A DNA stretch of 32,000 nucleotides from Vibrio alginolyticus NBRC 15630 = ATCC 17749 (GCF_000354175.2 NC_022349.1:1290001-1322000); one strand, 5' to 3'; positions 17,304 through 31,950 are shown, counted from the stretch's first letter. A program made the numbers and translations. The notes: a model not told the origin generated them from the sequence alone.

Positions 17304-17368
17304 ACCTGTACAAAAACACAGCCCTTTGACGTATCATTATTTGGTCAGTCAATAAGTTAGGTGCTTGT

Positions 17369-17620
17369 ATGAGAGTATTGTGTCCGGAGTGTGGTTGTAA
17401 AAGCCGAATTCAAAAATCCAATCGACTATCCAATAGTCATGCCGATTTATATTGCAGTTGTAGTGACCCAGAATGCGGGCATAGTTTTGTGATGAACTTG
17501 TCTTATAGTCATACTTTAAGCCCATCGGCAAAAACAACTAGTCAAATAGCTTTTGATTTATGTAAGGCGTTGCCGCCAGAGGCACGACAACAGCTCAAAC
17601 ATCAACTCTCGATACTATAG
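17369..17620 (+). CDS. ogr: Ogr/Delta-family zinc-finger late transcription activator
   Basis: CPEC-x22-C-x4-C spacing (CPECGCKSRIQKSNRLSNSHADLYCSCSDPEC). 83 aa. Confidence 0.8.
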   Translation: MRVLCPECGCKSRIQKSNRLSNSHADLYCSCSDPECGHSFVMNLSYSHTLSPSAKTTSQIAFDLCKALPPEARQQLKHQLSIL

Positions 17621-17848
17621 TGAATCTTGTATAAACGCCGTGCTATCTACTTCAGAAGCCATCTCGACAATGCTCAAGATGGCTTTTTGTTTTTCGGAGT
17701 CCAACTGCCCTTTTGTATCAGCCAGTATTAAGCCAGCAATATATGCACCTGCCGCTCTAGTCCTCTCTGTTGCCTCACTATTAGCCACACCATCAATGAC
17801 GATTTCTAAAGCAGACAACAAGATATCGTTTTGATTTTTATTCGACAT
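17615..17848 (-). CDS. Small acidic helical protein behind an SOS-box promoter; candidate Tum-like antirepressor (function unproven)
   Basis: The preferred start is MSNKNQNDILL at 17848, preceded by AAGGGTG. The longer GTG-initiated version would run through the LexA box. Confidence 0.5.
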   Translation of the reverse strand: MSNKNQNDILLSALEIVIDGVANSEATERTRAAGAYIAGLILADTKGQLDSEKQKAILSIVEMASEVDSTAFIQDSL

Positions 17849-17879
17849 ATCAACACCCTTACCAATCATCAGTGAAATA

Positions 17880-17899
17880 TACTGTATATCCATACAGTT
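17880..17899. promoter_or_regulatory. LexA (SOS) box TACTGTATATCCATACAGTT overlapping a minus-strand promoter
   Basis: CTGT(17882-17885)-N8-ACAG(17894-17897). On the minus strand TGGAAA (17899-17904)-N17-TATATT (17876-17881) brackets the box. Confidence 0.75.
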
Positions 17900-17935
17900 T
17901 TCCACAGTGGTTTTTAGATACCAGTCACTAGTTTG

Positions 17936-17948
17936 TTATGACGACACA
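17936..17948 (+). repeat. Left copy of the 13-bp direct repeat TTATGACGACACA bracketing the cargo segment
   Basis: Exact match to 20775-20787. The flanks are also similar (GTTTG/GTTC before, AA after one variable base). Confidence 0.7.
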
Positions 17949-18216
17949 TAAAGTAGCTAAAACGTATCTCTGCTGGAGAATGTTAGTTGATTAGCAGTGA
18001 GGAGATTTCATTTTGTAATTACTCATTTGAAGCATTTCAATTTTAAAGCAGTATTGCTGCATGACCTTCAGTTTGAAGGTTACTTTTCAATCAAACAAGA
18101 AAGCTGAACACTGATTAATATCACTAATTAAACATCTGCTAATTGAAGAGAATTATTAAAGGTTGCAATATCAGTATTGAAAATTATGTTTTAACACAAG
18201 CAACAATCTGACTTTT

Positions 18217-18681
18217 ATGAGAACTATAACAACAGAAATTCTATTATCATTATTACTTGGAGCTGTGCCGATAATATTGCTCAGCAATCAACCTGATTTT
18301 TCAGCGGCAGAAAGCTTATCGTCTTTGAATCCTGGTGACATTGTACTCAACTACTTCTTATACTTATTATGTATTCATTTAGTTATTTGGTTTTTAAATA
18401 GTCAAGTTTTAAAAACAAACCAGTCTATTTCAGCAACGCTACAAAGGGCACACGAGTTCACTCACAAGCTCGGGTTTGCCATTCATGGTGTTTATCGTGT
18501 TATAGCAGGTGCTGTTCCAGCGGCAATTTGGTTTGAAATTGATAAGCATGGATTTGTTCAAGGTTGGCAAGCGATAACTATTTTCAGTGTGGTTTTATCA
18601 ATATCTAGCTTTATCGCTAGTGTAGCTTTAGCCAAAGCTACTAACTATACAGCACCAAGAGCACTTCTTTTCGGTAAATAA
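18217..18681 (+). CDS. Integral membrane protein (about 4 TM), unknown function
   Basis: 154 aa with four hydrophobic segments. AT-rich cargo context. No good Shine-Dalgarno sequence. Confidence 0.5.
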   Translation: MRTITTEILLSLLLGAVPIILLSNQPDFSAAESLSSLNPGDIVLNYFLYLLCIHLVIWFLNSQVLKTNQSISATLQRAHEFTHKLGFAIHGVYRVIAGAVPAAIWFEIDKHGFVQGWQAITIFSVVLSISSFIASVALAKATNYTAPRALLFGK

Positions 18682-18755
18682 CATCAAAATTATAGTAGGC
18701 ATAAATATCAAGTTGCTTACATTGCAAACAAATGTAACTTTTAGAGAGACTATTA

Positions 18756-19193
18756 ATGAACAAATCAATCATTCTGGCCAGTGTTTTCATTGCATTAACT
18801 GGCTGTGCTTCACAACCTAATAATGAAAAATTCAATGTACATACAGCAGACTTTACAAAATCTAGTGACTTAAACCTATGTGCTGTCTATGGGGCCAGAG
18901 CGAATCGCTCTATTGAAGCTAAGAACGAACTAGTTAAGAGAGGTGTTTTCTCTGATGCTGAGTGGGAAAGCATTGCAGATAACAAAGTATCTGTCGGAAT
19001 GACAGAGTGTGCTGTTAAAGCGGCCTACTCTGTTAATTTTATAAAACAGAAAACCACAAAATTCAAAAATGGTGATAAGGGTATGACTTTCTTTTATGAT
19101 TGTAAGTCAAGCAATGCTACGTATTGTCCATTCACAAAAGTAGACTTTGTAAATGGAAAAGTCTCTGCAGTGTCTAAAGTTCAAAAAATATAA
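18756..19193 (+). CDS. Lipoprotein, unknown function (superinfection-exclusion candidate)
   Basis: Signal peptide with lipobox MNKSIILASVFIALTGCASQ. GAGAGA lies upstream of the ATG. Confidence 0.65.
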   Translation: MNKSIILASVFIALTGCASQPNNEKFNVHTADFTKSSDLNLCAVYGARANRSIEAKNELVKRGVFSDAEWESIADNKVSVGMTECAVKAAYSVNFIKQKTTKFKNGDKGMTFFYDCKSSNATYCPFTKVDFVNGKVSAVSKVQKI

Positions 19194-19303
19194 CACCAAA
19201 AGCTAAAAAATCTTGATCTAATTTAAGTGTACCAAACCAGTAGGATGAGAATCACTAGCTTGGTACATTTATTACCAGAATCTGAGTAATGACTACAATC
19301 TCA

Positions 19304-19882
19304 TCAATCAAATGGATCTGTCAGATTAGAAGAAAATACGAGTCCATTAAGCTGATTTTGTTCACACATAGCCTTGAACCTCTCTGTACAGTATAAGTTG
19401 CTGGCCCCTTCTAATCTTGATTTAAAGATCACTTTATCTTTCACATCATCATCAATGAATGCAAGAACCTCTAACCCATCAGGGCTTCCATATGAGATCT
19501 TCTCTACACACTTTTGTCTATCTTCTTTTCCAAAAGTCAGCGATGTATATAAATACCATTGTTCACTTTGATAATTGACAGGTAAAAAATCCCCGCTTTC
19601 AGATAAGAAACTATTTAAAGCTTCATATGCTCTCGGCGATAAAACAAGATATGTTCGTAACCATAAGCTAATATCAGGCAATACGGAGTTATCGGTTAAT
19701 ACATCTTCAAACTCGACCTCCGCAGACTTCCAAATATCTTTCAGAGATTTATTTTCAACAGCCTGCAATAAGATTCTCTCAAAATAGTCGAAATCCCCCA
19801 ACTGGGTAGCGATTTCATCTGGGCCAGAACATACCGACTGAAACTTAGTTAAATCATCTGTAATTTTATAAACCGTCATCAT
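19304..19882 (-). CDS. Cognate immunity protein for the AHH nuclease (DUF1629/Imm11-like by resemblance)
   Basis: Its ATG overlaps the toxin TGA (GGATGATGA, an ATGA overlap). The block LVLSPRAYEALNSFLSESGDFLPVNY resembles polymorphic-toxin immunity families. Confidence 0.6.
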   Translation of the reverse strand: MMTVYKITDDLTKFQSVCSGPDEIATQLGDFDYFERILLQAVENKSLKDIWKSAEVEFEDVLTDNSVLPDISLWLRTYLVLSPRAYEALNSFLSESGDFLPVNYQSEQWYLYTSLTFGKEDRQKCVEKISYGSPDGLEVLAFIDDDVKDKVIFKSRLEGASNLYCTERFKAMCEQNQLNGLVFSSNLTDPFD

Positions 19883-20610
19883 CCTTTCCAAACTTCATTC
19901 TTAGCTTCCAAGACCTCTTTAGGGTAGGTGCCACTCTTTAACTCCATTTTGACCCGAAGTAAGTTAGCCTCAAAGTGCTGTTTACTCGGAATACCCTTCG
20001 AAAATTTGGAACTAATCCAAGTTTCATAATTAAATGTATGGATCGAACGGTGAGCCGGAGACTTAGGTGCTTCCCAGTTAAAGTCCGTATGCTTCGCATA
20101 ATTTGTTAACCAAACACCATTTACGGGCGCATTTATGCCAATTTTATGCATGTGCAAATTTAATCTTGCGGCTCTCATTTCTGCTTTTCTAAACCTTCCC
20201 GAGCCAGGAATGATATGGTGAGGCTCATGGTTTTTAGTTGGTTTAGGCTCTCCTGCAGCGGTTAGATTATTAGCTAGTTTCGTCGTCGGATGATGCTTTT
20301 CAACGAACAACTCTTTCGCATTTTTTTTTAAGTTTTCTGCAGAGTACGATTGCAACTTAGCTTGCATATCTTCAACTCGAGCATGAGCAATGAGTTCAAT
20401 CCTCATTTTTTTCAAAAACCTCAAGTCTTGTGCTTCAAACTGCAATCGTTTTGCTCTTTGCTGTTCAGTTTCACCCGCAGGTGGAGCCACACGATACTTG
20501 CTATAGAAATCGTCGACTAACGCATCAAAACGATCTAAGGCCAACTCAGCTGCAGTTGGATTACTAGGACGATTCGTTTTTCGTCCAACTATACTCAAAT
20601 TATGCTTCAT
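19879..20610 (-). CDS. AHH-type HNH/EndoVII-fold nuclease toxin with no recognisable delivery domain
   Basis: C-terminal motifs HEPHHIIPGSGRF ... GINAPVNGVWL ... HRSIHTFNY. The preferred start is MKHNLSIVG at 20610, with GGAGGG 8 nt upstream. Confidence 0.7.
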   Translation of the reverse strand: MKHNLSIVGRKTNRPSNPTAAELALDRFDALVDDFYSKYRVAPPAGETEQQRAKRLQFEAQDLRFLKKMRIELIAHARVEDMQAKLQSYSAENLKKNAKELFVEKHHPTTKLANNLTAAGEPKPTKNHEPHHIIPGSGRFRKAEMRAARLNLHMHKIGINAPVNGVWLTNYAKHTDFNWEAPKSPAHRSIHTFNYETWISSKFSKGIPSKQHFEANLLRVKMELKSGTYPKEVLEAKNEVWKG

Positions 20611-20774
20611 ACTCGTATCCCTCCAACAAACAAAGCCGTTGGATAACATTCACATAACTGACGAGCAAATAATCAATAGCCTTTATGTGGCCTACAGCTC
20701 AGATTTTTATGCAAGCAATAGCACTTTAAATCAACTTTAAGAAATAGCGGTTCACTACTCTAACCTTTAAGTTC

Positions 20775-20787
20775 TTATGACGACACA
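20775..20787 (+). repeat. Right copy of the 13-bp direct repeat TTATGACGACACA
   Basis: Exact match to 17936-17948. Lies 7 nt beyond the stop codon of the replication gene. Confidence 0.7.
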
Positions 20788-20794
20788 AACCGGA

Positions 20795-24866: not shown

Positions 24867-25505
24867 ATGAGCATTCGTAAAATAGAACCTTTCGATTATT
24901 TGAAAGGCACTGATTTCACAGAAAATTTGAAGGATTTGACGGGATGTAAGAACTTTCAAGAAATGGCGTTCGTATATGGCGTACCAAAAAGCACTTTTAG
25001 CACTTGGAATACTCATAATCGAACTTCCCATGAACTCATGGTAAGAGCTCATTTAGCTTTGGGAATCCCAATGGTGGATTTGGCGTTAAAGCCAGAGGAC
25101 CGGTTTAAGGCTCACTCAGCGACAAAATGTACTGCCGAAGAAGCAAGCGCTACAACTTCACCTAAACACAACTCAGTCCAGATCAAAAGCTATTGCCTGA
25201 CCAATGGGGAGCTTTTAGATACTGGTGAGTTACCTTACGCTATCCGCAGGTTTAACAGCTTTAACCTCAAAGCTGACGCGACAATTGAAGTTGAAACTAA
25301 TGAAGCTATATATCTCGTTGACAAAAGCTCTACAAACCCAGCTTCGGGCAAATACTTAATAGATATTGACGGTACTTTGTCGATCAATCATATCCAGCGC
25401 TTACCAGGCAAAAAACTGGCTGTTGTGTTTGGTGATAGCACCGTAGAAGTTTCAGAGAAAGCTATAAAAGTAATTGGTCGTGTAGCAGTCACGCTAAAAA
25501 CATAG
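24867..25505 (+). CDS. cI: CI-like immunity repressor
   Basis: N-terminal Cro/CI-type HTH (KNFQEMAFVYGVPKSTFSTWNTHNR). The C-terminal beta-rich domain ends IKVIGRVAVTLK, which looks S24-like, but no GDSM-type Ser motif or Ala-Gly site is evident. Confidence 0.7.
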   Translation: MSIRKIEPFDYLKGTDFTENLKDLTGCKNFQEMAFVYGVPKSTFSTWNTHNRTSHELMVRAHLALGIPMVDLALKPEDRFKAHSATKCTAEEASATTSPKHNSVQIKSYCLTNGELLDTGELPYAIRRFNSFNLKADATIEVETNEAIYLVDKSSTNPASGKYLIDIDGTLSINHIQRLPGKKLAVVFGDSTVEVSEKAIKVIGRVAVTLKT

Positions 25506-25627
25506 ATATAAGTAAATATATCTTCCGTTACGTGACGAGTATCATCAGATTTTTATCCTAACGTTAAGCTTTGACATTTTATATGGTACAACATCCATAT
25601 TCACTCAATAGCAAAATAAGTTAGACA

Positions 25628-27181
25628 ATGATTATCGATAAAGTTGACATTTCGAGGTTTAGAGCTTTCGAGAATACGGCATTTACATTAGGTGAATGGG
25701 TTACTCTAATAGCAGGCCAAAACGGCACCCAAAAGAGCACATTATTAGGGATGTTATCCCAACCGTTTACAATAACTGATGAAGATCATCCATTACATGG
25801 TGAATTACCGTTATCAGGAGACAATTTTCGCTCCAGATTCAAAGATAAGTTTCGCTTATCTCCAATATTTGACCAAGCCAAACAACATGAGTGGACTCTA
25901 CATTTAAAAAACAACAATAAACCTTTTACCCTTGAAAGTATTTCTCGAGATAAAGAAAAAGGAAAGATTCGTTTTTGGAGAAAAGGCGATCGGTCTGCAG
26001 GAAGTGGCTATATCCAACTACCAGTTATTTACCTTAGCCTCAAACGATTGATTCCAATAGGTGAAGAAGATGATTCTAAAATATCAACGAGCACTGATGT
26101 CACCCTAACCGAAGAAGAAAATGTTTGGTTCTCTACCTACTATAAAAAGATAATGATTAATCATTCAGAGGTATTAAACTCTGTTGATTATGTAAAAAGT
26201 CCAAACAAAGCTACTTTAGGTGTTAGCACAAAGACATATGATTGGAATACAAACTCTGCAGGCCAAGATAATATAGGCAAAATTTTATTAGCCATCTTGT
26301 CTTTCAAACGATTGAAAGACAAGTATGGCGAGAAGTATGAAGGGGGTATTTTAGCTATAGATGAGATAGATGCAACATTGTATCCTGGCTCTCAAATTAA
26401 GTTACTTGATTCTTTTATGGAAATTTGTCGAGATTACAAAATCCAAGTAATTGCGACAACGCACTCTTTAGAACTACTTAAAAAGGCAGATGCTCTTTCA
26501 AAACGTAAAGCCAAAAAGGTAAAAATCATTTATCTTAAAAAGCAGGATGGAAAAGTTCTTATAGATGACAATCTTGAATATGATCGAATACTTCATAATT
26601 TAAAGTTATCACTAGGAGAGCCAGTACCGCCTAAGCCAAAACTTACAATTTATACAGAAGATCCTGAGTGTATACATTTTGTGAAGGCATCACTAGGAAG
26701 GACTGTAAATAACATTGCCTTTTCAGATATAAGTTTAGGCTGTGGTAATTATGTTCAAATGGCTACAAAAAAAGTTCCAACTTTTACATTCCCGCATTCC
26801 ATCGTTGTCTTGGATGGGGATGCAGCTCCTATTTTACAGAAAAGGCGCCTCAAAAATTTTATATGCATACCTGGGGAGCAAAGACCTGAAGGAACTTTAG
26901 CTAATTTCTTGCATAACCTACCTGAAGCAGATTCATTTTGGACATCTAAGAATCCAGACTATTCTAAACAACATTGCTTTCTAGATTTTACTCTTAACGA
27001 TATATTATTAGATCGCGGTAAAGCAAAAGCTTGGTACAACAGACAATTAGGAACAAATAATTGGGGGCGCCATGCCAGTCACCTCTATAAGCGATATTTT
27101 GAGGCATACCCAGAAGTAAAAGAAGATTTTGTTTCTAGATTCAAGAAAATTCACGAAGAAATATTGAAACATACCGAATAA
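25628..27181 (+). CDS. ABC-type ATPase with C-terminal Toprim-like domain (OLD-family / fused PARIS AriA-AriB-like)
   Basis: Walker A LIAGQNGTQKSTLLG. Signature-like NSAGQDNIGK. Walker B GILAIDEIDATLYPG. H-loop VIATTHSLELL. C-terminal LTIYTEDPECIHF ... SIVVLDGDAAP (a Glu plus DxD, as in Toprim). Confidence 0.6.
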   Translation: MIIDKVDISRFRAFENTAFTLGEWVTLIAGQNGTQKSTLLGMLSQPFTITDEDHPLHGELPLSGDNFRSRFKDKFRLSPIFDQAKQHEWTLHLKNNNKPFTLESISRDKEKGKIRFWRKGDRSAGSGYIQLPVIYLSLKRLIPIGEEDDSKISTSTDVTLTEEENVWFSTYYKKIMINHSEVLNSVDYVKSPNKATLGVSTKTYDWNTNSAGQDNIGKILLAILSFKRLKDKYGEKYEGGILAIDEIDATLYPGSQIKLLDSFMEICRDYKIQVIATTHSLELLKKADALSKRKAKKVKIIYLKKQDGKVLIDDNLEYDRILHNLKLSLGEPVPPKPKLTIYTEDPECIHFVKASLGRTVNNIAFSDISLGCGNYVQMATKKVPTFTFPHSIVVLDGDAAPILQKRRLKNFICIPGEQRPEGTLANFLHNLPEADSFWTSKNPDYSKQHCFLDFTLNDILLDRGKAKAWYNRQLGTNNWGRHASHLYKRYFEAYPEVKEDFVSRFKKIHEEILKHTE

Positions 27182-27187
27182 TAAAAA

Positions 27188-27208
27188 GGCTCCTAATGGA
27201 GCCCTTTT
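27188..27208. terminator. Bidirectional hairpin terminator between convergent genes
   Basis: AAAAA-GGCTCC-TAAT-GGAGCC-CTTTT. Overlaps the methylase stop codon. Confidence 0.6.
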
Positions 27209-28094
27209 ACTTTAGTGGTTTACCAAGATTTTTTAACTTTCTCAGTTCATTAAATGAGATGTCAGGTTTAAACAATACCTTATGGATAGTTGGGCTATGA
27301 ATGATAAGCTCAGAGCCTTTGCGTTTTGTTTGTGCCGTATATGTTAGACCAAATGGTTGTGGATCAAACTCTGCGTATATACCAGCAATCTCGGGAGTAT
27401 CATCATAGGTTACAATCCAAGGATGCTGAATATTTCTCACACTGCGGTAAAGACGATAGTGATCATCATGCTTAAAGAAATTTTGGTAAAGACCTTTGCC
27501 TTTAACATAGTAAGGCGGGTCGATATTAACGAGACATGGGCCGTCGATATCTGGTAGGTATTCATCAATAAACAATGTAGCGTCGACATTAGTTAAAACT
27601 ATGTTTTCCCTACGCGCAGCAATAGCCCTAATTTGCTGAGTCAATCTTTCTTTGTTATATCTACAGTCTAGTAGGTAGTTACCATTTTGCTCTAGACCAC
27701 CGATCACACCAGCTTTAATGATCCCAGAACGGTTTGTTCTATTTAAGAAAAACGTCGCAAATCCCAATTGAAGAGAGTTAGTCTTGTCATTGGAATAAAC
27801 TTCCTTTTGTCTGAACCACTCTTCTATTGTAACGTCGGTGTTTTCTATCAACTGACAAAGCTCATCAGTTCGATTTAACACGCTATACCAGAAAGCATGA
27901 ATCGCAGGGTCTAAATCGTTAACCCACACATTTTCAACATGCCCTTCTAAAAGTAGATACCATGCGATTGCACACCCACCGGCGAATGGCTCCACGTACG
28001 TTCCCCCCTCAAGCCCATTTAGCTTGAGAGTCTCCACGACATATGCGGTAAGCTTGGACTTCCCACCTGGATACCTTAGCGGTGAATAAAACAT
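27207..28094 (-). CDS. Dam-family (D12 class) N6-adenine DNA methyltransferase
   Basis: LRYPGGKSKL, VEPFAGGCAIA (FxGxG) and VNIDPPYYVKG (DPPY), in the alpha-class motif order. Confidence 0.85.
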   Translation of the reverse strand: MFYSPLRYPGGKSKLTAYVVETLKLNGLEGGTYVEPFAGGCAIAWYLLLEGHVENVWVNDLDPAIHAFWYSVLNRTDELCQLIENTDVTIEEWFRQKEVYSNDKTNSLQLGFATFFLNRTNRSGIIKAGVIGGLEQNGNYLLDCRYNKERLTQQIRAIAARRENIVLTNVDATLFIDEYLPDIDGPCLVNIDPPYYVKGKGLYQNFFKHDDHYRLYRSVRNIQHPWIVTYDDTPEIAGIYAEFDPQPFGLTYTAQTKRKGSELIIHSPTIHKVLFKPDISFNELRKLKNLGKPLK

Positions 28095-29647
28095 TATCTT
28101 TCCTTCAATTCAATCAGGACTTTTAGCAGGGGCGTAAGCATATCCCAAAAGCCATTTACAAATCTATAATCAATTTTATGGGTTTCATGTCCATGCATAT
28201 AGCTGTTCAACGTATCTAAACTGTGTTCATTGTTTGGCTGAAGTAGCTTACTGATAACCTTGTTTGCTTGTGTTTCCTTTACATGACTATCGCACAAAAA
28301 CTTAAGACGTTGCTGGAGGATAGTATGATTGTAGTCTTTGTTGTACTGTTTGGCCACGAGCTTTTCTAATTCATTTCTACGAATAAAATCATCGACTGAA
28401 AGATCAAGAAATACGCGAAGAGTTATAGATGCCGAATGAGTATAAAGATGCACTGGCACTTTTTTTAGTTCAGCAAATAGGCTATTGAGTTTTGCGCTAT
28501 GCACCTTGATCGTCGTTTGGGGAATGACCATTCGAAGTCTATTACTCTTAAGCTTAACTGGTACGTCCAACTTAATTTGAGTAGAACCAGATACACTAGC
28601 TTGCTCATTAACGTTATTGGTTGTTTCAGCTTTAGGTTCCGTACCATTACTAGGACTGTTCGGTTCGATTTTTTCTGGAGAGTCTATCGATGTTGAAAGT
28701 ACTTTTTCTTTTCCATTTTCTGGGAAAGTAACTTCTGGAAGTACAGCAAATATACTCTCGTTCCTTTCTGGTATCGAACGAGTGTTCACAGCAAAGTCTA
28801 AGTCATTGGGTTCAATATTAAACATCAGTTTAAGAAACTTACCATACGCATGGAGAAAACTATCTTCGTTCGAAGTTATTTTAACTTTCATTCCATCAAA
28901 CTGAACTCCCCACCGATCTCGAACTGACTCACTAGCAAACCAACGCTCTAGAATAGTCATAGATATACGGTTGCTATAAATCAGCTCTTTTTCTTCCTCA
29001 CTCATCAAGTCTGTAACTTGTTTACGAGTAGCTAAATCACGCAACTGAACATATCTGAGTGCCTGAATTATCTCTGAACGAGTAAAACCTGTGACTGATA
29101 TAATTTTATCAATATCGTGTTCGTACTCATCATACAAACTCACAATGAAGCGCTGTTGCTGCAAACGCTGCCACGGTTTCTGAATAGAGCTAGTCGAATG
29201 ACGCTGTAAAACATACCAGCGTGTTGCTTCTAGGCTTGGTGCTACACAGACTTGCACTTTTTCAATGTCGTTTCGGTCAATGAGCTTTGACTGCTGCAAA
29301 ATGAACTTACGAATTGATTTAGGCGCTTTCTCTGGATTCCGCAGCAGTTTGAGAGCCAAAATACGACGATTTCCTTCTGCAACAATATAGCGTTCAGTCT
29401 CGTCTTTCCAAACAACAATGGGTTCAAAATCCATAAAGCCGAGTTTGATGATCGATTTAATGAGCTCAAAAAAGCTCGCTTTGTCTGAAGGTTCATTGAT
29501 AATTTCTTCAGCAAAGTCAGCTAACTTTATTCTCGATTGGCTTTCTGCCGTATCAAAACGGGGGTTTTCTTTCCAGAGCTTCAAATAGTCAACCGAACGG
29601 GGTGTACGCTTTTCCCACCACTTATTTTTGTTACCAACCACTTTCAT
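28094..29647 (-). CDS. ParB/Srx N-terminal-domain protein with long linker and uncharacterised C-terminal helical domain
   Basis: YIVAEGNRRILALKLL (ParB GxRR box). Ser/Asn/Pro-rich linker (residues ~315-355). C-terminal domain with LNSYMHGHETH. Its stop overlaps the methylase start (TAATG). Confidence 0.6.
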   Translation of the reverse strand: MKVVGNKNKWWEKRTPRSVDYLKLWKENPRFDTAESQSRIKLADFAEEIINEPSDKASFFELIKSIIKLGFMDFEPIVVWKDETERYIVAEGNRRILALKLLRNPEKAPKSIRKFILQQSKLIDRNDIEKVQVCVAPSLEATRWYVLQRHSTSSIQKPWQRLQQQRFIVSLYDEYEHDIDKIISVTGFTRSEIIQALRYVQLRDLATRKQVTDLMSEEEKELIYSNRISMTILERWFASESVRDRWGVQFDGMKVKITSNEDSFLHAYGKFLKLMFNIEPNDLDFAVNTRSIPERNESIFAVLPEVTFPENGKEKVLSTSIDSPEKIEPNSPSNGTEPKAETTNNVNEQASVSGSTQIKLDVPVKLKSNRLRMVIPQTTIKVHSAKLNSLFAELKKVPVHLYTHSASITLRVFLDLSVDDFIRRNELEKLVAKQYNKDYNHTILQQRLKFLCDSHVKETQANKVISKLLQPNNEHSLDTLNSYMHGHETHKIDYRFVNGFWDMLTPLLKVLIELKER

Positions 29648-29773
29648 TAAACCTCAAGCTTATATATCTACAAGTATGATATTCATATAAAACGAGTATG
29701 TTAAGCACCTTAATGCTCATTTGAGAAGGGTTGCTTATATTTGGAGCAAAATTTGACTATTATCAAAGACTAA

Positions 29774-29793
29774 CACTGTATATAAAAACAGAT
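29774..29793. promoter_or_regulatory. LexA (SOS) box CACTGTATATAAAAACAGAT upstream of the ParB-like/methylase operon
   Basis: CTGT(29776-29779)-N8-ACAG(29788-29791). Lies 127 nt upstream of the ParB-like ATG. The 17-mer ACTGTATATAAAAACAG is identical to 30895-30911. Confidence 0.7.
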
Positions 29794-29809
29794 TTGGTGT
29801 AAGTGCCGC

Positions 29810-29839
29810 GTCAAGCTAGAGAGCATGCTCTAGCTTGAC
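29810..29839. other. Perfect 12-bp-arm palindrome GTCAAGCTAGAG-AGCATG-CTCTAGCTTGAC
   Basis: Read directly from the sequence. Followed by a second hairpin, TACCTCTA-N11-TAGAGGTA (29841-29867). Both lie just 3' of the 2-TM gene. Confidence 0.5.
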
Positions 29840-29893
29840 TTACCTCTATCGTTCAATAGTAGAGGTATCATTCCTTTGCCTGAACAAGCCTAA

Positions 29894-30682
29894 CTAAAAT
29901 TGCTTGTTTTTGACGTACTCTTCTAGCTCATTCCGTATCGACGTATTCAAACTTAGCGCAGCGAATGCATTAGAAAATTTGTCCATCGTCAATTTACAAT
30001 CAGAAAATGGCTTCTCATTTCTAGCATAGTCAAACAAATCATCCACCAATACTTGAAGTTCTCCTAAAGAATACAAGCAAGACTTTCTATATGATCGATT
30101 GCCTGAGCTATCCGTCGGAATAGCTCTCATTCTTGCATCATGAATCTGCAGTAGCATTAATATATTTGCCAAATATTCAGCTACATCCGGCGTTGCCGAT
30201 TTTATACATTCTTTGAAAATAGGGATATGACGCTCATATGTGTCTGGTATTTCAGTCTTTAGAGCATTTCTCTTGCGCCTAGGTTCTTTCGAGTTTTCAT
30301 ATGCTTCACTCAGTACCTTAGCGCTTTTTCTAAGATAGTCACATAATTCATTGAGCGCTTGTGGCAAGAAAGCCTTAGCTGCTATAAATTCTCTTTCTAA
30401 CTGTTTAGTGACATGATATCGAGATATGTTAAACGCAATCAAGCTAGAGCCAAAAGCTAGCATGCCCACATTGAGAGCCTGCCATGAGTACCACACGCCA
30501 TGTACATACTGCCAACTCCACTTTCCTTCAATAAAGGGATGGATGAACATTGAATATAAATATACAAGAATTACAACGACACTAAAAAAGTTCAGCGCCC
30601 GAATTAGATTTTCAACCCCAAATAAGGTTCGATACAGTTTCAATATTCCTCCAACCCACGTCGGTTCTTGTTCAACATTCAC
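29894..30682 (-). CDS. 2-TM membrane protein with cytoplasmic helical domain (abortive-infection/exclusion candidate)
   Basis: GTG start with GGAG 7 nt upstream. TM1 FFSVVVILVYLYSMFIHPFI and TM2 ALNVGMLAFGSSLIAFNI, then about 170 aa of charged helical sequence. Confidence 0.55.
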   Translation of the reverse strand: MNVEQEPTWVGGILKLYRTLFGVENLIRALNFFSVVVILVYLYSMFIHPFIEGKWSWQYVHGVWYSWQALNVGMLAFGSSLIAFNISRYHVTKQLEREFIAAKAFLPQALNELCDYLRKSAKVLSEAYENSKEPRRKRNALKTEIPDTYERHIPIFKECIKSATPDVAEYLANILMLLQIHDARMRAIPTDSSGNRSYRKSCLYSLGELQVLVDDLFDYARNEKPFSDCKLTMDKFSNAFAALSLNTSIRNELEEYVKNKQF

Positions 30683-30893
30683 TTTCTAACTCCAAACATA
30701 GTACAAACCCTCGCTAGCCTTCAAAATGATTGGTTGACGCCCTCATAATGTTACTTTTTGCATATAAATACAATTCATAAGAAAAACTCCACCACACAGC
30801 GTCTTTAATCACACCTGATAGCACCAACTATATTATTGTCATTCCTGTTCGTTCATCATCCACTTAAACATTGCAAAATCTCCGACATAGAAA

Positions 30894-30913
30894 TACTGTA
30901 TATAAAAACAGTA
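30894..30913. promoter_or_regulatory. LexA (SOS) box TACTGTATATAAAAACAGTA overlapping a plausible int promoter
   Basis: CTGT(30896-30899)-N8-ACAG(30908-30911). TTGCAA(30871-30876)-N17-TACTGT(30894-30899). The box ends 15 nt before the int ATG. Confidence 0.75.
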
Positions 30914-30927
30914 AAGTTTATACTGAG

Positions 30928-31950
30928 ATGACTACACGAAACCTTAAAGACGGCAGTAAAAAACCTTGGCTATGCGAGTGCTACCCACAAGGTCGAGCAG
31001 GAAAACGTGTCCGTAAACGATTTGCAACCAAAGGCGAAGCTACCGCTTTTGAGTTGCATCTAATGAAAGAGGTGGATGACAAACCATGGTTAGGGAGTAA
31101 ACCCGATCACCGTCGATTATCTAACTTGGTGGAACTTTGGTACATGCTCCACGGAAAGAACCTGAAATCTGGAGAACATACTCGTCTACGTTTAGGGAAT
31201 ATGGTTGAAGACTTAAGCGACCCGATCGCAGCTCAACTAAACTCGAAACACCTCGCGACTTACCGAGCAGCCCGCATGAACAAGGGGCGTGGCCAAGAAC
31301 ACAAAGAGCTTTCTATTGCATCCAACAATGTGGACTTTGGGTTGCTAAAAGCGATGTTCAACAAGTTAATAAAGCTTGGTGAGTGGAAGCTACCAAATCC
31401 GGTTAGCGGTATTGAGGCAATCAAAAAGCCTGAGTCTGAGCTTGCGTTCCTGACCGAACAAGAGATTCATCTCCTGTTTGAAGTAGCTCAACAAAGCCCG
31501 ATTGGTGATGAGCTAACGAAGATATATAAAGTTTGCCTAGCGACTGGTGCGCGTATCAGGGAAGCTATTTATCTGAAGGGTTCTAACTTGACGAAATACC
31601 GCATTACCTACAACAACACCAAAGGTAAGCGCAACAGAACAGTACCAATTTCTGAAGAGTTGTATAACCAAATTTATAAGCCAACCAATGACCGCCTTTT
31701 TACTTGCGGTTACGGCGTAGCATACAAGTGGTTAACTAAAGCCCTCCCCCATTTACCAGAAGGACAAGCGACTCACGTTTTACGTCATACCTTCGCAAGT
31801 CACTTTATGACTAATGGCGGCAACATTCTTGTTCTTAAGGAAATCCTCGGTCATCAGCACATCGATCACACTATGATTTACGCTCATTTTTCGCCAAATC
31901 ACCTGAGTGATGCCGTACGTTTCAACCCACTAACAAATCTTAGTATCTAG
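30928..31950 (+). CDS. int: Tyrosine integrase (P2/HP1 family)
   Basis: The preferred start is MTTRNLKDGSKKPWLCECYPQGRAGKRVRKRF. Catalytic motifs ATGARIREAIYL, HVLRHTFASHF and LGHQHIDHTMIYAH. Confidence 0.9.
   Translation: MTTRNLKDGSKKPWLCECYPQGRAGKRVRKRFATKGEATAFELHLMKEVDDKPWLGSKPDHRRLSNLVELWYMLHGKNLKSGEHTRLRLGNMVEDLSDPIAAQLNSKHLATYRAARMNKGRGQEHKELSIASNNVDFGLLKAMFNKLIKLGEWKLPNPVSGIEAIKKPESELAFLTEQEIHLLFEVAQQSPIGDELTKIYKVCLATGARIREAIYLKGSNLTKYRITYNNTKGKRNRTVPISEELYNQIYKPTNDRLFTCGYGVAYKWLTKALPHLPEGQATHVLRHTFASHFMTNGGNILVLKEILGHQHIDHTMIYAHFSPNHLSDAVRFNPLTNLSI

Follow-up and report, generated by a model that had tools for sequence, protein, structure and literature searches.

A variable slot between cI and int of a Vibrio prophage carries a candidate methylation-based anti-phage module and a stand-alone membrane protein

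Introduction

What does a P2-like prophage carry between its repressor and its integrase, and do the genes found there belong together? This question is raised by a 5.4-kb AT-rich island (positions 25506-30927) that separates cI from int in a prophage of Vibrio alginolyticus NBRC 15630 = ATCC 17749. All positions refer to the window, that is, the whole stretch of 32,000 nucleotides that was analyzed (NC_022349.1:1290001-1322000). An earlier note on this DNA described an OLD/PARIS-like ATPase-Toprim gene (here T) on the plus strand and, on the minus strand, a ParB-like gene (A) in operon with a Dam-like methylase gene (M) and a gene for a protein with two transmembrane (TM) helices. All four genes were located as described. 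We read the island as the cargo of a variable slot, assembled from two unrelated acquisitions, namely, a methylation-based anti-phage module made of T, M, and A and a stand-alone membrane protein of 262 amino acids (aa). The probability that we give to this reading is roughly 0.6.

The principle of a defense hotspot is already known. P2-like phages have variable loci at fixed positions that are packed with defense genes (Rousset et al. 2022, PMC9122126; NAR 2026, PMC13586616). The main hotspot described for them lies between gpA and the portal gene, and the surveys were centered on Enterobacteria (PMC9122126, PMC13586616). The cI-int segment resembles it as a fixed-position variable defense locus, and the gpA-portal locus exists separately in the window, at 17304-20794. 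No specific description of a Vibrio cI-int slot with the LexA-box promoter of int as its right anchor was found in the literature searched.

Results and Discussion

The cI-int segment as a swappable cargo slot

The window corresponds to Vibrio phage ValB1MD-2 (Peduoviridae, Valbvirus; host V. alginolyticus). Against the deposited record (MT662115/NC_055862, in which window position + 3839 = GenBank position) there were 0 mismatches over 32 kb, and the sole difference was one extra G near window 28921. The same prophage, with an intact A gene, adjoins grx/sodB in Vibrio chromosomes, e.g., CP014045.1.

The base composition of the island was explored with a sliding-window profile, which bore out its reported AT richness. 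The G+C content (GC) is 0.377 in the island versus 0.456 in the rest of the phage when a second AT-rich region is left out, and the island is the lowest-GC 5.4-kb window across the 32 kb, with 0.2% of the sliding windows equally low, a uniqueness qualified by that second region (17304-20794; GC 0.374), which is equally AT-rich. Gene by gene, GC is 0.355 for the ATPase, 0.405 for the methyltransferase, 0.391 for A, and 0.387 for the membrane protein, with cI (0.412) and int (0.448) on the flanks. DNA similarity to 22 related prophages ends sharply at 25486-25500 and restarts at 30824-30947, so that 25506-30927 are essentially the true limits of the variable segment.

These relatives were obtained by a search for the two border genes, cI and int, in phage records and in a single genome of each species, which gave 22 related loci (designated by L numbers), 19 of them with both flanks. 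The cI-int order is kept in all 19, the distance between the two genes ranges from 588 to 7297 bp, and the GC of the gap is below that of the flanks in 19/19; in a Klebsiella relative the gap is only 8 bp. None of the four cargo proteins gave a tblastn match in any of the 22 loci, and the cargo-negative loci include one with a cI 96% identical to that of the window (L013) and three with an int 91-94% identical (L006-L008). Moreover, integrases 84-94% identical were found in prophages with entirely different cargo. Conserved borders around varying cargo, as the earlier note had anticipated, are thus what the alignment with relatives returned.

The cargo of the relatives is dominated by known or candidate defense systems. 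At least one PADLOC family match was observed in 10/10 relatives with scanned cargo, and the matches range from complete systems down to single PDC families or a lone methylase. The slot holds a C5-methylase with a complete Menshen system (NsnABC) and a type IV restriction enzyme in phage L9-1, a type II restriction-modification (RM) system with a type IV enzyme in L006 and L010, PD-T7-4 with PDC-S60 in L007, the KAP/QatA-like PDC-S20 in L008, PDC-M11A/B in L013, a SIR2 protein in L017, PD-lambda-1 in L009, and IetAS in L021. Together with the homology of the A-M pair to a validated anti-phage system (see below), this agrees with the proposal that the island lies in an anti-phage hotspot. The comparisons support the cI-int segment as a swappable cargo slot of the lysogeny module in Vibrio K139/ValB1MD-2-type P2-like prophages, with the stop codon of cI as one boundary and the LexA-box promoter of int as the other. 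Such a slot is convenient for mining Vibrio prophages for defense genes, which matters for phage therapy in aquaculture.

In K139 the cI-int gap measures 1353 bp and does hold the exclusion gene glo, as the earlier note had stated for phages of this type, together with orf2; cI-orf2-glo-int is annotated as being transcribed as a single lysogenic operon. Searches of the K139 locus with the four cargo proteins (tblastn) gave no match at E <=1e-5, and the position alone is shared. In V. parahaemolyticus L029-L032, an int-2TM-A-M-T block is accompanied by a different cI and by a DUF4145 protein and a 149-155-aa open reading frame (ORF) between T and cI, which indicates that cargo builds up stepwise in the slot.

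A and M as homologues of PD-lambda-5

Matches to defense-system models identify the ParB-like plus Dam operon as the known system PD-lambda-5. A aligns with PADLOC model PD-Lambda-5_A (PDLC03995) at 5.4e-189, residues 6-516 against model positions 4-502 of 503, and M with PD-Lambda-5_B (PDLC04018) at 2.3e-118, over 2-272 of 291; the match of M to the NCBIfam Dam family falls below the cut-off. Across 69 homologues of A, G92-N93-R94-R95, W159, and R411 are invariant and H485 is present in 98%, and the match to Pfam ParB_N reaches E 0.015 only. PD-lambda-5 was described from E. coli ECOR7 as a "ParB/HEPN, methyltransferase" pair that gave broad protection against phages when just these two genes were cloned in a strain lacking the mrr region, and it was called a compacted "RM+Abi" (abortive infection) system (Vassallo et al. 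2022, Nat Microbiol, PMC9519451). Its occurrence in prophages and islands of Vibrio is on record as well (PMC12824646), and no established mechanism for it was found in the literature searched.

Membership of this locus in PD-lambda-5 is assigned from the full-length homologues of A and M in A-then-M order, the protective activity being known from the ECOR7 system. A full-length ParB/HEPN protein, a D12 methylase, an A-then-B operon, and a prophage location are common to both. There are, however, two differences. PD-lambda-5 was published as two genes, whereas here and in about half of the ATPase lineages a third gene, for the OLD-like ATPase-nuclease, accompanies them, and in many lineages the methylase partners the ATPase without A.

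In the deposited ValB1MD-2 genome (record ~32760, window ~28921), one G is missing, the A gene is frameshifted, and it is annotated as two hypothetical proteins, gp41 and gp42. Exact copies of the intact 517-aa protein were seen in at least 65 blocks of public assemblies. The frameshift is either a sequencing error or a real inactivating mutation.

An alternative that bears on these two genes is that the cargo serves the phage itself, with M shielding phage DNA from host restriction and A and T taking part in partition, in recombination, or in the control of replication. Orphan Dam-like methylases are found in many phages, A is named "chromosome partitioning protein" by GenBank annotators, and the ValB1MD-2 record is that of a complete phage genome in spite of the frameshift in A. 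We consider this reading highly improbable, given that the genes are missing from all 22 relatives that share the rest of the genome organization, that recognized defense systems fill the slot elsewhere, that the same module also occurs in integrative and conjugative elements (ICEs) and nonphage islands, and that the closest characterized homologue is an anti-phage system (PMC9519451).

An OLD-like ATPase with a putative nuclease domain

T belongs to a family of ~520-aa proteins conserved end to end (1468 matches) and aligns over its full length (2e-105) with phrog_3940 (PHROG 3940), which has no assigned function. PADLOC has no dedicated model for T and gave partial matches only, to AriA, retron ATPase-Toprim_I-B, NsnB, AbiLi, PtuA, and GajA. 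The top match, to AriA (6.5e-18), covers residues 165-282 only, in the C-terminal part of the ATPase, and those to retron ATPase-Toprim_I-B (1.4e-16) and NsnB (9e-16) cover residues 234-417 and 3-309, respectively.

Sequence motifs assign to the N-terminus an ABC ATPase with Walker A, Walker B, signature motif, and H-loop: K36, S210/G212/Q213/D214, D245/E246, and H279 are each present in at least 129 of 131 homologues, which extend to 27% identity. The AlphaFold (AF2) model has a predicted local distance difference test score (pLDDT) of 88.7, and its best full-length Foldseek matches, over 520-650 aligned columns, are the retron Eco8 effector, the Thermus OLD protein 6p74, and GajA; matches to the ATPase only (Rad50, SMC, PtuA) align over 330-480 columns. 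Residues 339-430 of the model form a beta-alpha repeat with E344/D345 after strand 1 and D396-G-D398 after strand 3, and E344/D345, D396/D398, E421, and K467 are invariant or nearly so in the same 131 homologues. Since proof of a Toprim domain failed at the level of sequence, the OLD-family assignment of T rests on fold and motifs. We describe T as OLD-like, with a putative nuclease domain, its membership in the OLD family being not proven.

Three assignments were tried and rejected. T was set aside as a member of PARIS, given the narrow extent of the AriA match and no match to DUF4435/AriB in Pfam or PADLOC; as a type I-B retron effector, with no ORF for a reverse transcriptase domain in or beside the island (no Rfam scan for msr/msd RNA was made) and T flanked by cI and the convergent M; and as Gabija or a class 2 OLD, with no UvrD/PcrA-type helicase (GajB) in the island or in the T contexts inspected. 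The designation OLD/PARIS-like ATPase-Toprim is retained for the ATPase and, tentatively, by predicted fold and invariant acidic motifs but with no profile match, for the Toprim domain, and dropped for PARIS. A and T each match different PADLOC models named PDC-M38A, a mere hint at a possible ParB-ATPase fusion.

In comparison with the OLD family (P2 Old, the class 1 OLD of Thermus scotoductus, 6p74, GajA, and the Eco8 effector), T shares an N-terminal ABC ATPase and has, in the model, a C-terminal beta-alpha domain of putative metal-binding type with invariant E...DxD...E, and it is likewise prophage encoded and probably on the lysogen side of expression. It differs in the lack of a Toprim profile match, in aligning with P2 Old at Walker A only, and in having no UvrD-type helicase or reverse transcriptase. 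A DNA methylase as conserved partner, as seen for T, is not reported for OLD-family proteins in the literature searched. PARIS has in common with T an ABC ATPase, a nuclease of Toprim type (putative in T), and carriage by P2/P4-type elements, whereas T is a single polypeptide in a methylase-linked neighborhood where no DUF4435 was detected.

Menshen (NsnABC) likewise joins a protein of the ParB superfamily and an OLD-type ABC ATPase to a nuclease effector (PMC12065111), and a complete Menshen occupies the same slot in phage L9-1. Here, however, the ParB domain of A is not of DUF262 type, T has its own putative nuclease domain instead of a DUF3696 tail, there is no NsnC, and a methylase belongs to the core. 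Menshen is sometimes associated with a methylase (PMC12065111), and by analogy it would be the nearest conceptual parallel to T-M-A.

Genetic linkage of T and M

The neighborhoods of T were surveyed in 148 loci fetched by T homology from metagenomes and IMG/VR and searched with purpose-built hidden Markov models. A PD-lambda-5_B-type methylase adjoins T in 53/56 loci that extend 3 kb or more to either side of T, usually across a gap of -6 to 80 bp. After dereplication, M stands beside T in 44/45 clusters at 90% identity and in 16/16 at 50%, and A accompanies the T-M pair in 22/45 clusters. As a control, 0/22 prophages selected by int carry such a methylase. Pairwise identities co-vary between T and M (r=0.60; Mantel p=0.001) and between A and M (r=0.84).

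The linkage persists while gene order changes: A>M>T>, T>A>M>, A>T>M>, T>M<A<, and T>M> were all seen, among them collinear operons whose genes overlap or almost touch. In all the contexts of T that were inspected one by one, M is its neighbor. The convergent T/M layout of the window recurs in prophages of V. parahaemolyticus and V. cholerae, and a collinear A-M-T operon was found in an Alteromonas element whose integrases are different. The hosts are marine Gammaproteobacteria, prophages with S24-type repressor/ImmA-like modules (including Streptococcus phages), and an E. coli ICE and prophage, and the family is present in gut and marine metagenomes. In prophages that lack A, a T>M> pair lies with an S24- or ImmA-type repressor module on one side and the integrase on the other, which is the same kind of slot in unrelated phages. 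The E. coli loci L204 (ICE, CP054282) and L205 (prophage, CP066839) carry T>M> pairs without a PD-lambda-5_A gene; their T proteins measure 573-577 aa, M is 48-49% identical to that of the window, and NCBI names one of the ATPases "ATP-dependent nuclease." DNA of the partner methylase is detectable in at least 119 of 5,426 complete E. coli genomes. In Citrobacter phage phiNP, a distant T homologue of 595 aa has no adjacent methylase of this family, which indicates that the linkage is not absolute at that distance.

By these observations T does not stand on its own: its family is genetically tied to the methylase family of M. The earlier note had divided the island into three separate units, which stands for transcription and probably does not for function. 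No description of the ATPase-methylase pairing was found in literature searches whose coverage was incomplete, and this is weak negative evidence. What is new here is T as a conserved, undescribed third partner in the neighborhood of PD-lambda-5, which itself is already known. As to the expectation that the island would hold novel defense functions, the scan with defense-system predictors assigns the ParB/Dam operon to the validated PD-lambda-5, which is not novel; the ATPase partner is undescribed, and the membrane protein is uncharacterized.

The linkage also bears on the alternative that the slot is a crowded hotspot of three independent systems, in which T would be a self-sufficient single-gene defense of class 1 OLD-like or fused-PARIS-like type that happens to share the site with PD-lambda-5. 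P2 Old works as a single gene. In the window, T has its own strand, transcription unit, and third-position GC, and the E. coli PD-lambda-5 needs no ATPase (PMC9519451). It is improbable, however, that independent genes would stand beside the same methylase family in 44/45 dereplicated lineages, in unrelated elements and permuted orders, with none in the int-matched controls and with collinear operons whose genes overlap or nearly abut. If the genes were nonetheless independent, the island would be an ordinary prophage defense hotspot with one known system.

A proposed T-M-A module

In the module that we propose, the D12 adenine methylase M would mark host and prophage DNA as self, and T and A would be two effectors that are checked by this mark or aimed at DNA without it. 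For T, the ATP cycle of the OLD-like ABC ATPase would control the C-terminal Toprim-type nuclease, acting on unmethylated DNA, and A would bind DNA/NTP in the manner of ParB and carry an effector domain of HEPN type. A and M, in which the start codon of M overlaps the stop codon of A by 1 nucleotide at 28094, would form a translationally coupled operon converging on the same terminator as T. Expression of T in lysogens would most likely come from read-through from the cI promoter. The spacer between cI and T shows neither terminator nor promoter, T is co-directional with and downstream of cI in every Vibrio prophage copy, and, by analogy with the lysogenic operon of K139, the two genes are probably co-transcribed.

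Several observations weigh against this module. The isolated C-terminal domain of T, taken from 14 homologues, matched no Toprim profile in Pfam at E <=10 or in a PDB profile search, hhalign aligned T with P2 Old in the Walker A region alone, and the canonical Rx4-6H motif was not identified in the 69-homologue alignment of A. In the loci L037 and L039, T is 64-68% identical to its counterpart in the window, versus 86-90% for A and M, and third-position GC (GC3) is 0.276 for T, compared with 0.372 for M and 0.357 for A. These figures suggest that T evolves faster or is exchanged between modules and that it has a partly separate history. T also lies on the opposite strand from A and M in the window, in another transcription unit, and it is dispensable in E. 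coli, where PD-lambda-5 protects without it (PMC9519451). As for the second part of our reading, no homology, structural match, or conserved neighbor points to a function of the 262-aa protein.

The main rival keeps the partnership and changes the role of T. As with PrrC and EcoprrI, or PARIS sensing Ocr, T would be a guard held inactive by M or A-M and would fire as an abortive-infection nuclease once an anti-restriction protein of a phage disables that system or mimics its target. That AriA, the PARIS ATPase, is the best PADLOC match of T is consistent with such a role, as is the tight T-M linkage, which would fit a physical partnership. Nucleases regulated by ABC ATPases are known guards (Septu, PARIS, PrrC, and RloC, reviewed in PMC12065111), and the label "RM+Abi" given to PD-lambda-5 (PMC9519451) points the same way. 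Most lineages, however, have T and M only, with no other nuclease to guard, and guarding a lone methylase is less parsimonious than T acting as the nuclease; moreover, no match of DUF4435/AriB type was obtained. We regard the guard role as unlikely.

The methylation-based reading can be extended to a broader one, which we offer tentatively and would hold at somewhat less than even odds. T and M may constitute an unrecognized and widespread RM-like class, in which an ATP-gated Toprim nuclease would be the methylation-sensitive restriction component and A an optional second effector sharing M, with the full three-component version at this locus. Separately, the 262-aa membrane protein may represent a new factor of exclusion or abortive infection, encoded by a single gene, that is also spread as an integron cassette in Vibrio.

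Should T-M(-A) form a single system, PD-lambda-5 would be incompletely annotated, and the abundant phage family PHROG 3940 would gain a role. It would also mean that an OLD-type nuclease leaves the decision between self and nonself to a DNA methylase, which would link effectors of the Gabija, Old, and PARIS type to classical restriction-modification logic.

The 262-aa membrane protein

The fourth gene had been described as encoding a 2-TM protein. It encodes a membrane protein with one clear helix (Kyte-Doolittle 2.19), the second being marginal (1.44). The 88 homologues found, none of them named, come from Gamma- and Betaproteobacteria, and no match was obtained in Pfam, PADLOC, PHROGs, or NCBIfam. 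The AF2 model is all-helical (pLDDT 87.5), and structure searches of the PDB and BFVD gave no match with E <0.04, only nonsignificant helical bundles. Among these is a marginal BFVD match (E 0.065, probability 0.97) to P51700, an ORF from the int-C1 intergenic region of Haemophilus phage HP1, the equivalent of the int-cI slot; this match is nonsignificant and may be a coincidence between helical proteins.

The distribution of the gene differs from that of T-M-A. A cassette array on V. cholerae chromosome 2 and a Pseudomonas island carry it alone, elsewhere it stands beside DUF4145, SMODS/DUF6602, or small toxin-antitoxin-like genes, and it is missing from V. parahaemolyticus and V. cholerae copies of T-M-A with the convergent layout. 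Between two prophage copies, the protein is 85% identical versus 94-97% for T, M, and A. On sequence and context, we class it as a member of an uncharacterized stand-alone family and as independent cargo.

The way in which it arrived may be read from the flanks. The region upstream of A, with its LexA-box-like site, aligns with the A-int intergenic region of L037, a V. parahaemolyticus prophage without the 2-TM gene, and a second, identical site precedes int. From this, the 2-TM gene has the look of a separate insertion by which the int promoter was duplicated; it would have entered between the A promoter and int along with a duplicate of the LexA-box promoter of int. The protein would most likely act alone as an exclusion or abortive-infection factor, a guess from its position and autonomy.

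Feature map of the locus

The positions of the slot, its borders, and the regulatory elements are collected in Table 1. The hairpins and terminators that had been noticed between the units were recovered, as a bidirectional terminator between T and M and two hairpins in 29810-29867, and the latter pair, between the 2-TM and A genes, is kept in the V. parahaemolyticus copies. For int, the mechanical ORF opens at TTG 30871 and would cross the LexA box; ATG 30928 is a better fit to the conserved upstream architecture.

Table 1. Features of the cI-int slot and its borders (window coordinates)
Feature	Position	Strand	Basis
cI repressor, left border of slot	24867-25505	+	Pfam Phage_CI_repr 4e-17, Phage_CI_C 1e-13; 64% identical to K139 cI
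cI-ATPase spacer	25506-25627	+	Scan: no terminator, no consensus promoter
T: OLD-like ABC ATPase (residues 1-~330), putative Toprim-like domain (~335-430), helical tail	25628-27181	+	Pfam AAA_15 2e-18, AAA_21 1e-10; PHROG 3940
Bidirectional intrinsic terminator between convergent ATPase and methyltransferase genes	27182-27209	both	TAAAAAGGCTCC/GGAGCCCTTTTA; inverted repeat I6 with A-run and T-run; terminator scan 27188-27203
M: D12-class N6-adenine DNA methyltransferase, PD-lambda-5_B equivalent	27207-28094	-	Pfam MethyltransfD12 6e-19; DPPY motif
A: 517 aa, predicted ParB/Srx-like N-terminal and HEPN-like C-terminal domains, PD-lambda-5_A equivalent	28094-29647	-	PADLOC
Upstream region of A-M operon	29676-29791	-	Promoter-like sites 29704-29676 (10/12 match) and 29786-29759; LexA-box-like palindrome 29776-29791
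Two hairpins 3' of 2-TM gene, likely terminator or insulator	29810-29839 (perfect 12-bp stem, I1); 29841-29867 (8-bp stem, I21)	-	Inverted-repeat scan
Membrane-anchored all-helical protein, 262 aa	29894-30682	-	No family match; independent cargo
LexA-box-like site CTGTATATAAAAACAG, right border of slot, 17 bp 5' of int	30896-30911	+	Palindrome scan; conserved position
Tyrosine integrase int	30928-31950	+	Pfam Int_N 3e-29, Phage_integrase 5e-19; RefSeq start ATG 30928

LexA-box-like sites and the second AT-rich region

Four LexA-box-like sites were found in the window versus 0.5 expected. A palindrome of this kind lies 16-35 bp 5' of the int start in at least 12 related prophages with different cargo (the site was seen in L002, L006-L008, L010, L011, L013, L021, L029-L032, L037, and L133), and K139, PV94, and yong1 lack it. 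These findings suggest that, where cargo splits the cI-int operon, int may be served by a separate promoter under SOS control. The palindrome 5' of the A-M operon, at a distance of 129 bp from A, raised the possibility of LexA control of PD-lambda-5, which was down-weighted: in alignments with relatives, the box and the DNA beside it match their plus-strand promoter of int type, so that it looks like a duplicated int promoter left by the 2-TM insertion.

The second AT-rich region lies between the portal gene and that of a 695-aa replication protein, the canonical position of the P2 old/tin hotspot. PADLOC gave no match for its proteins, which comprise one with an AHH nuclease domain (19879-20610, minus strand), an overlapping 192-aa partner, and the products of three small ORFs. 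A further LexA-box-like site, CTGTATGGATATACAG (17882-17897, minus strand), makes up the 17-nucleotide spacer that separates TGGAAA from TATATT; a small ORF matching phrog_5581 (no assigned function; region 17615-17930, minus strand) lies shortly downstream. By analogy with coliphage 186, this ORF is a candidate for an SOS-controlled, Tum-like antirepressor gene.

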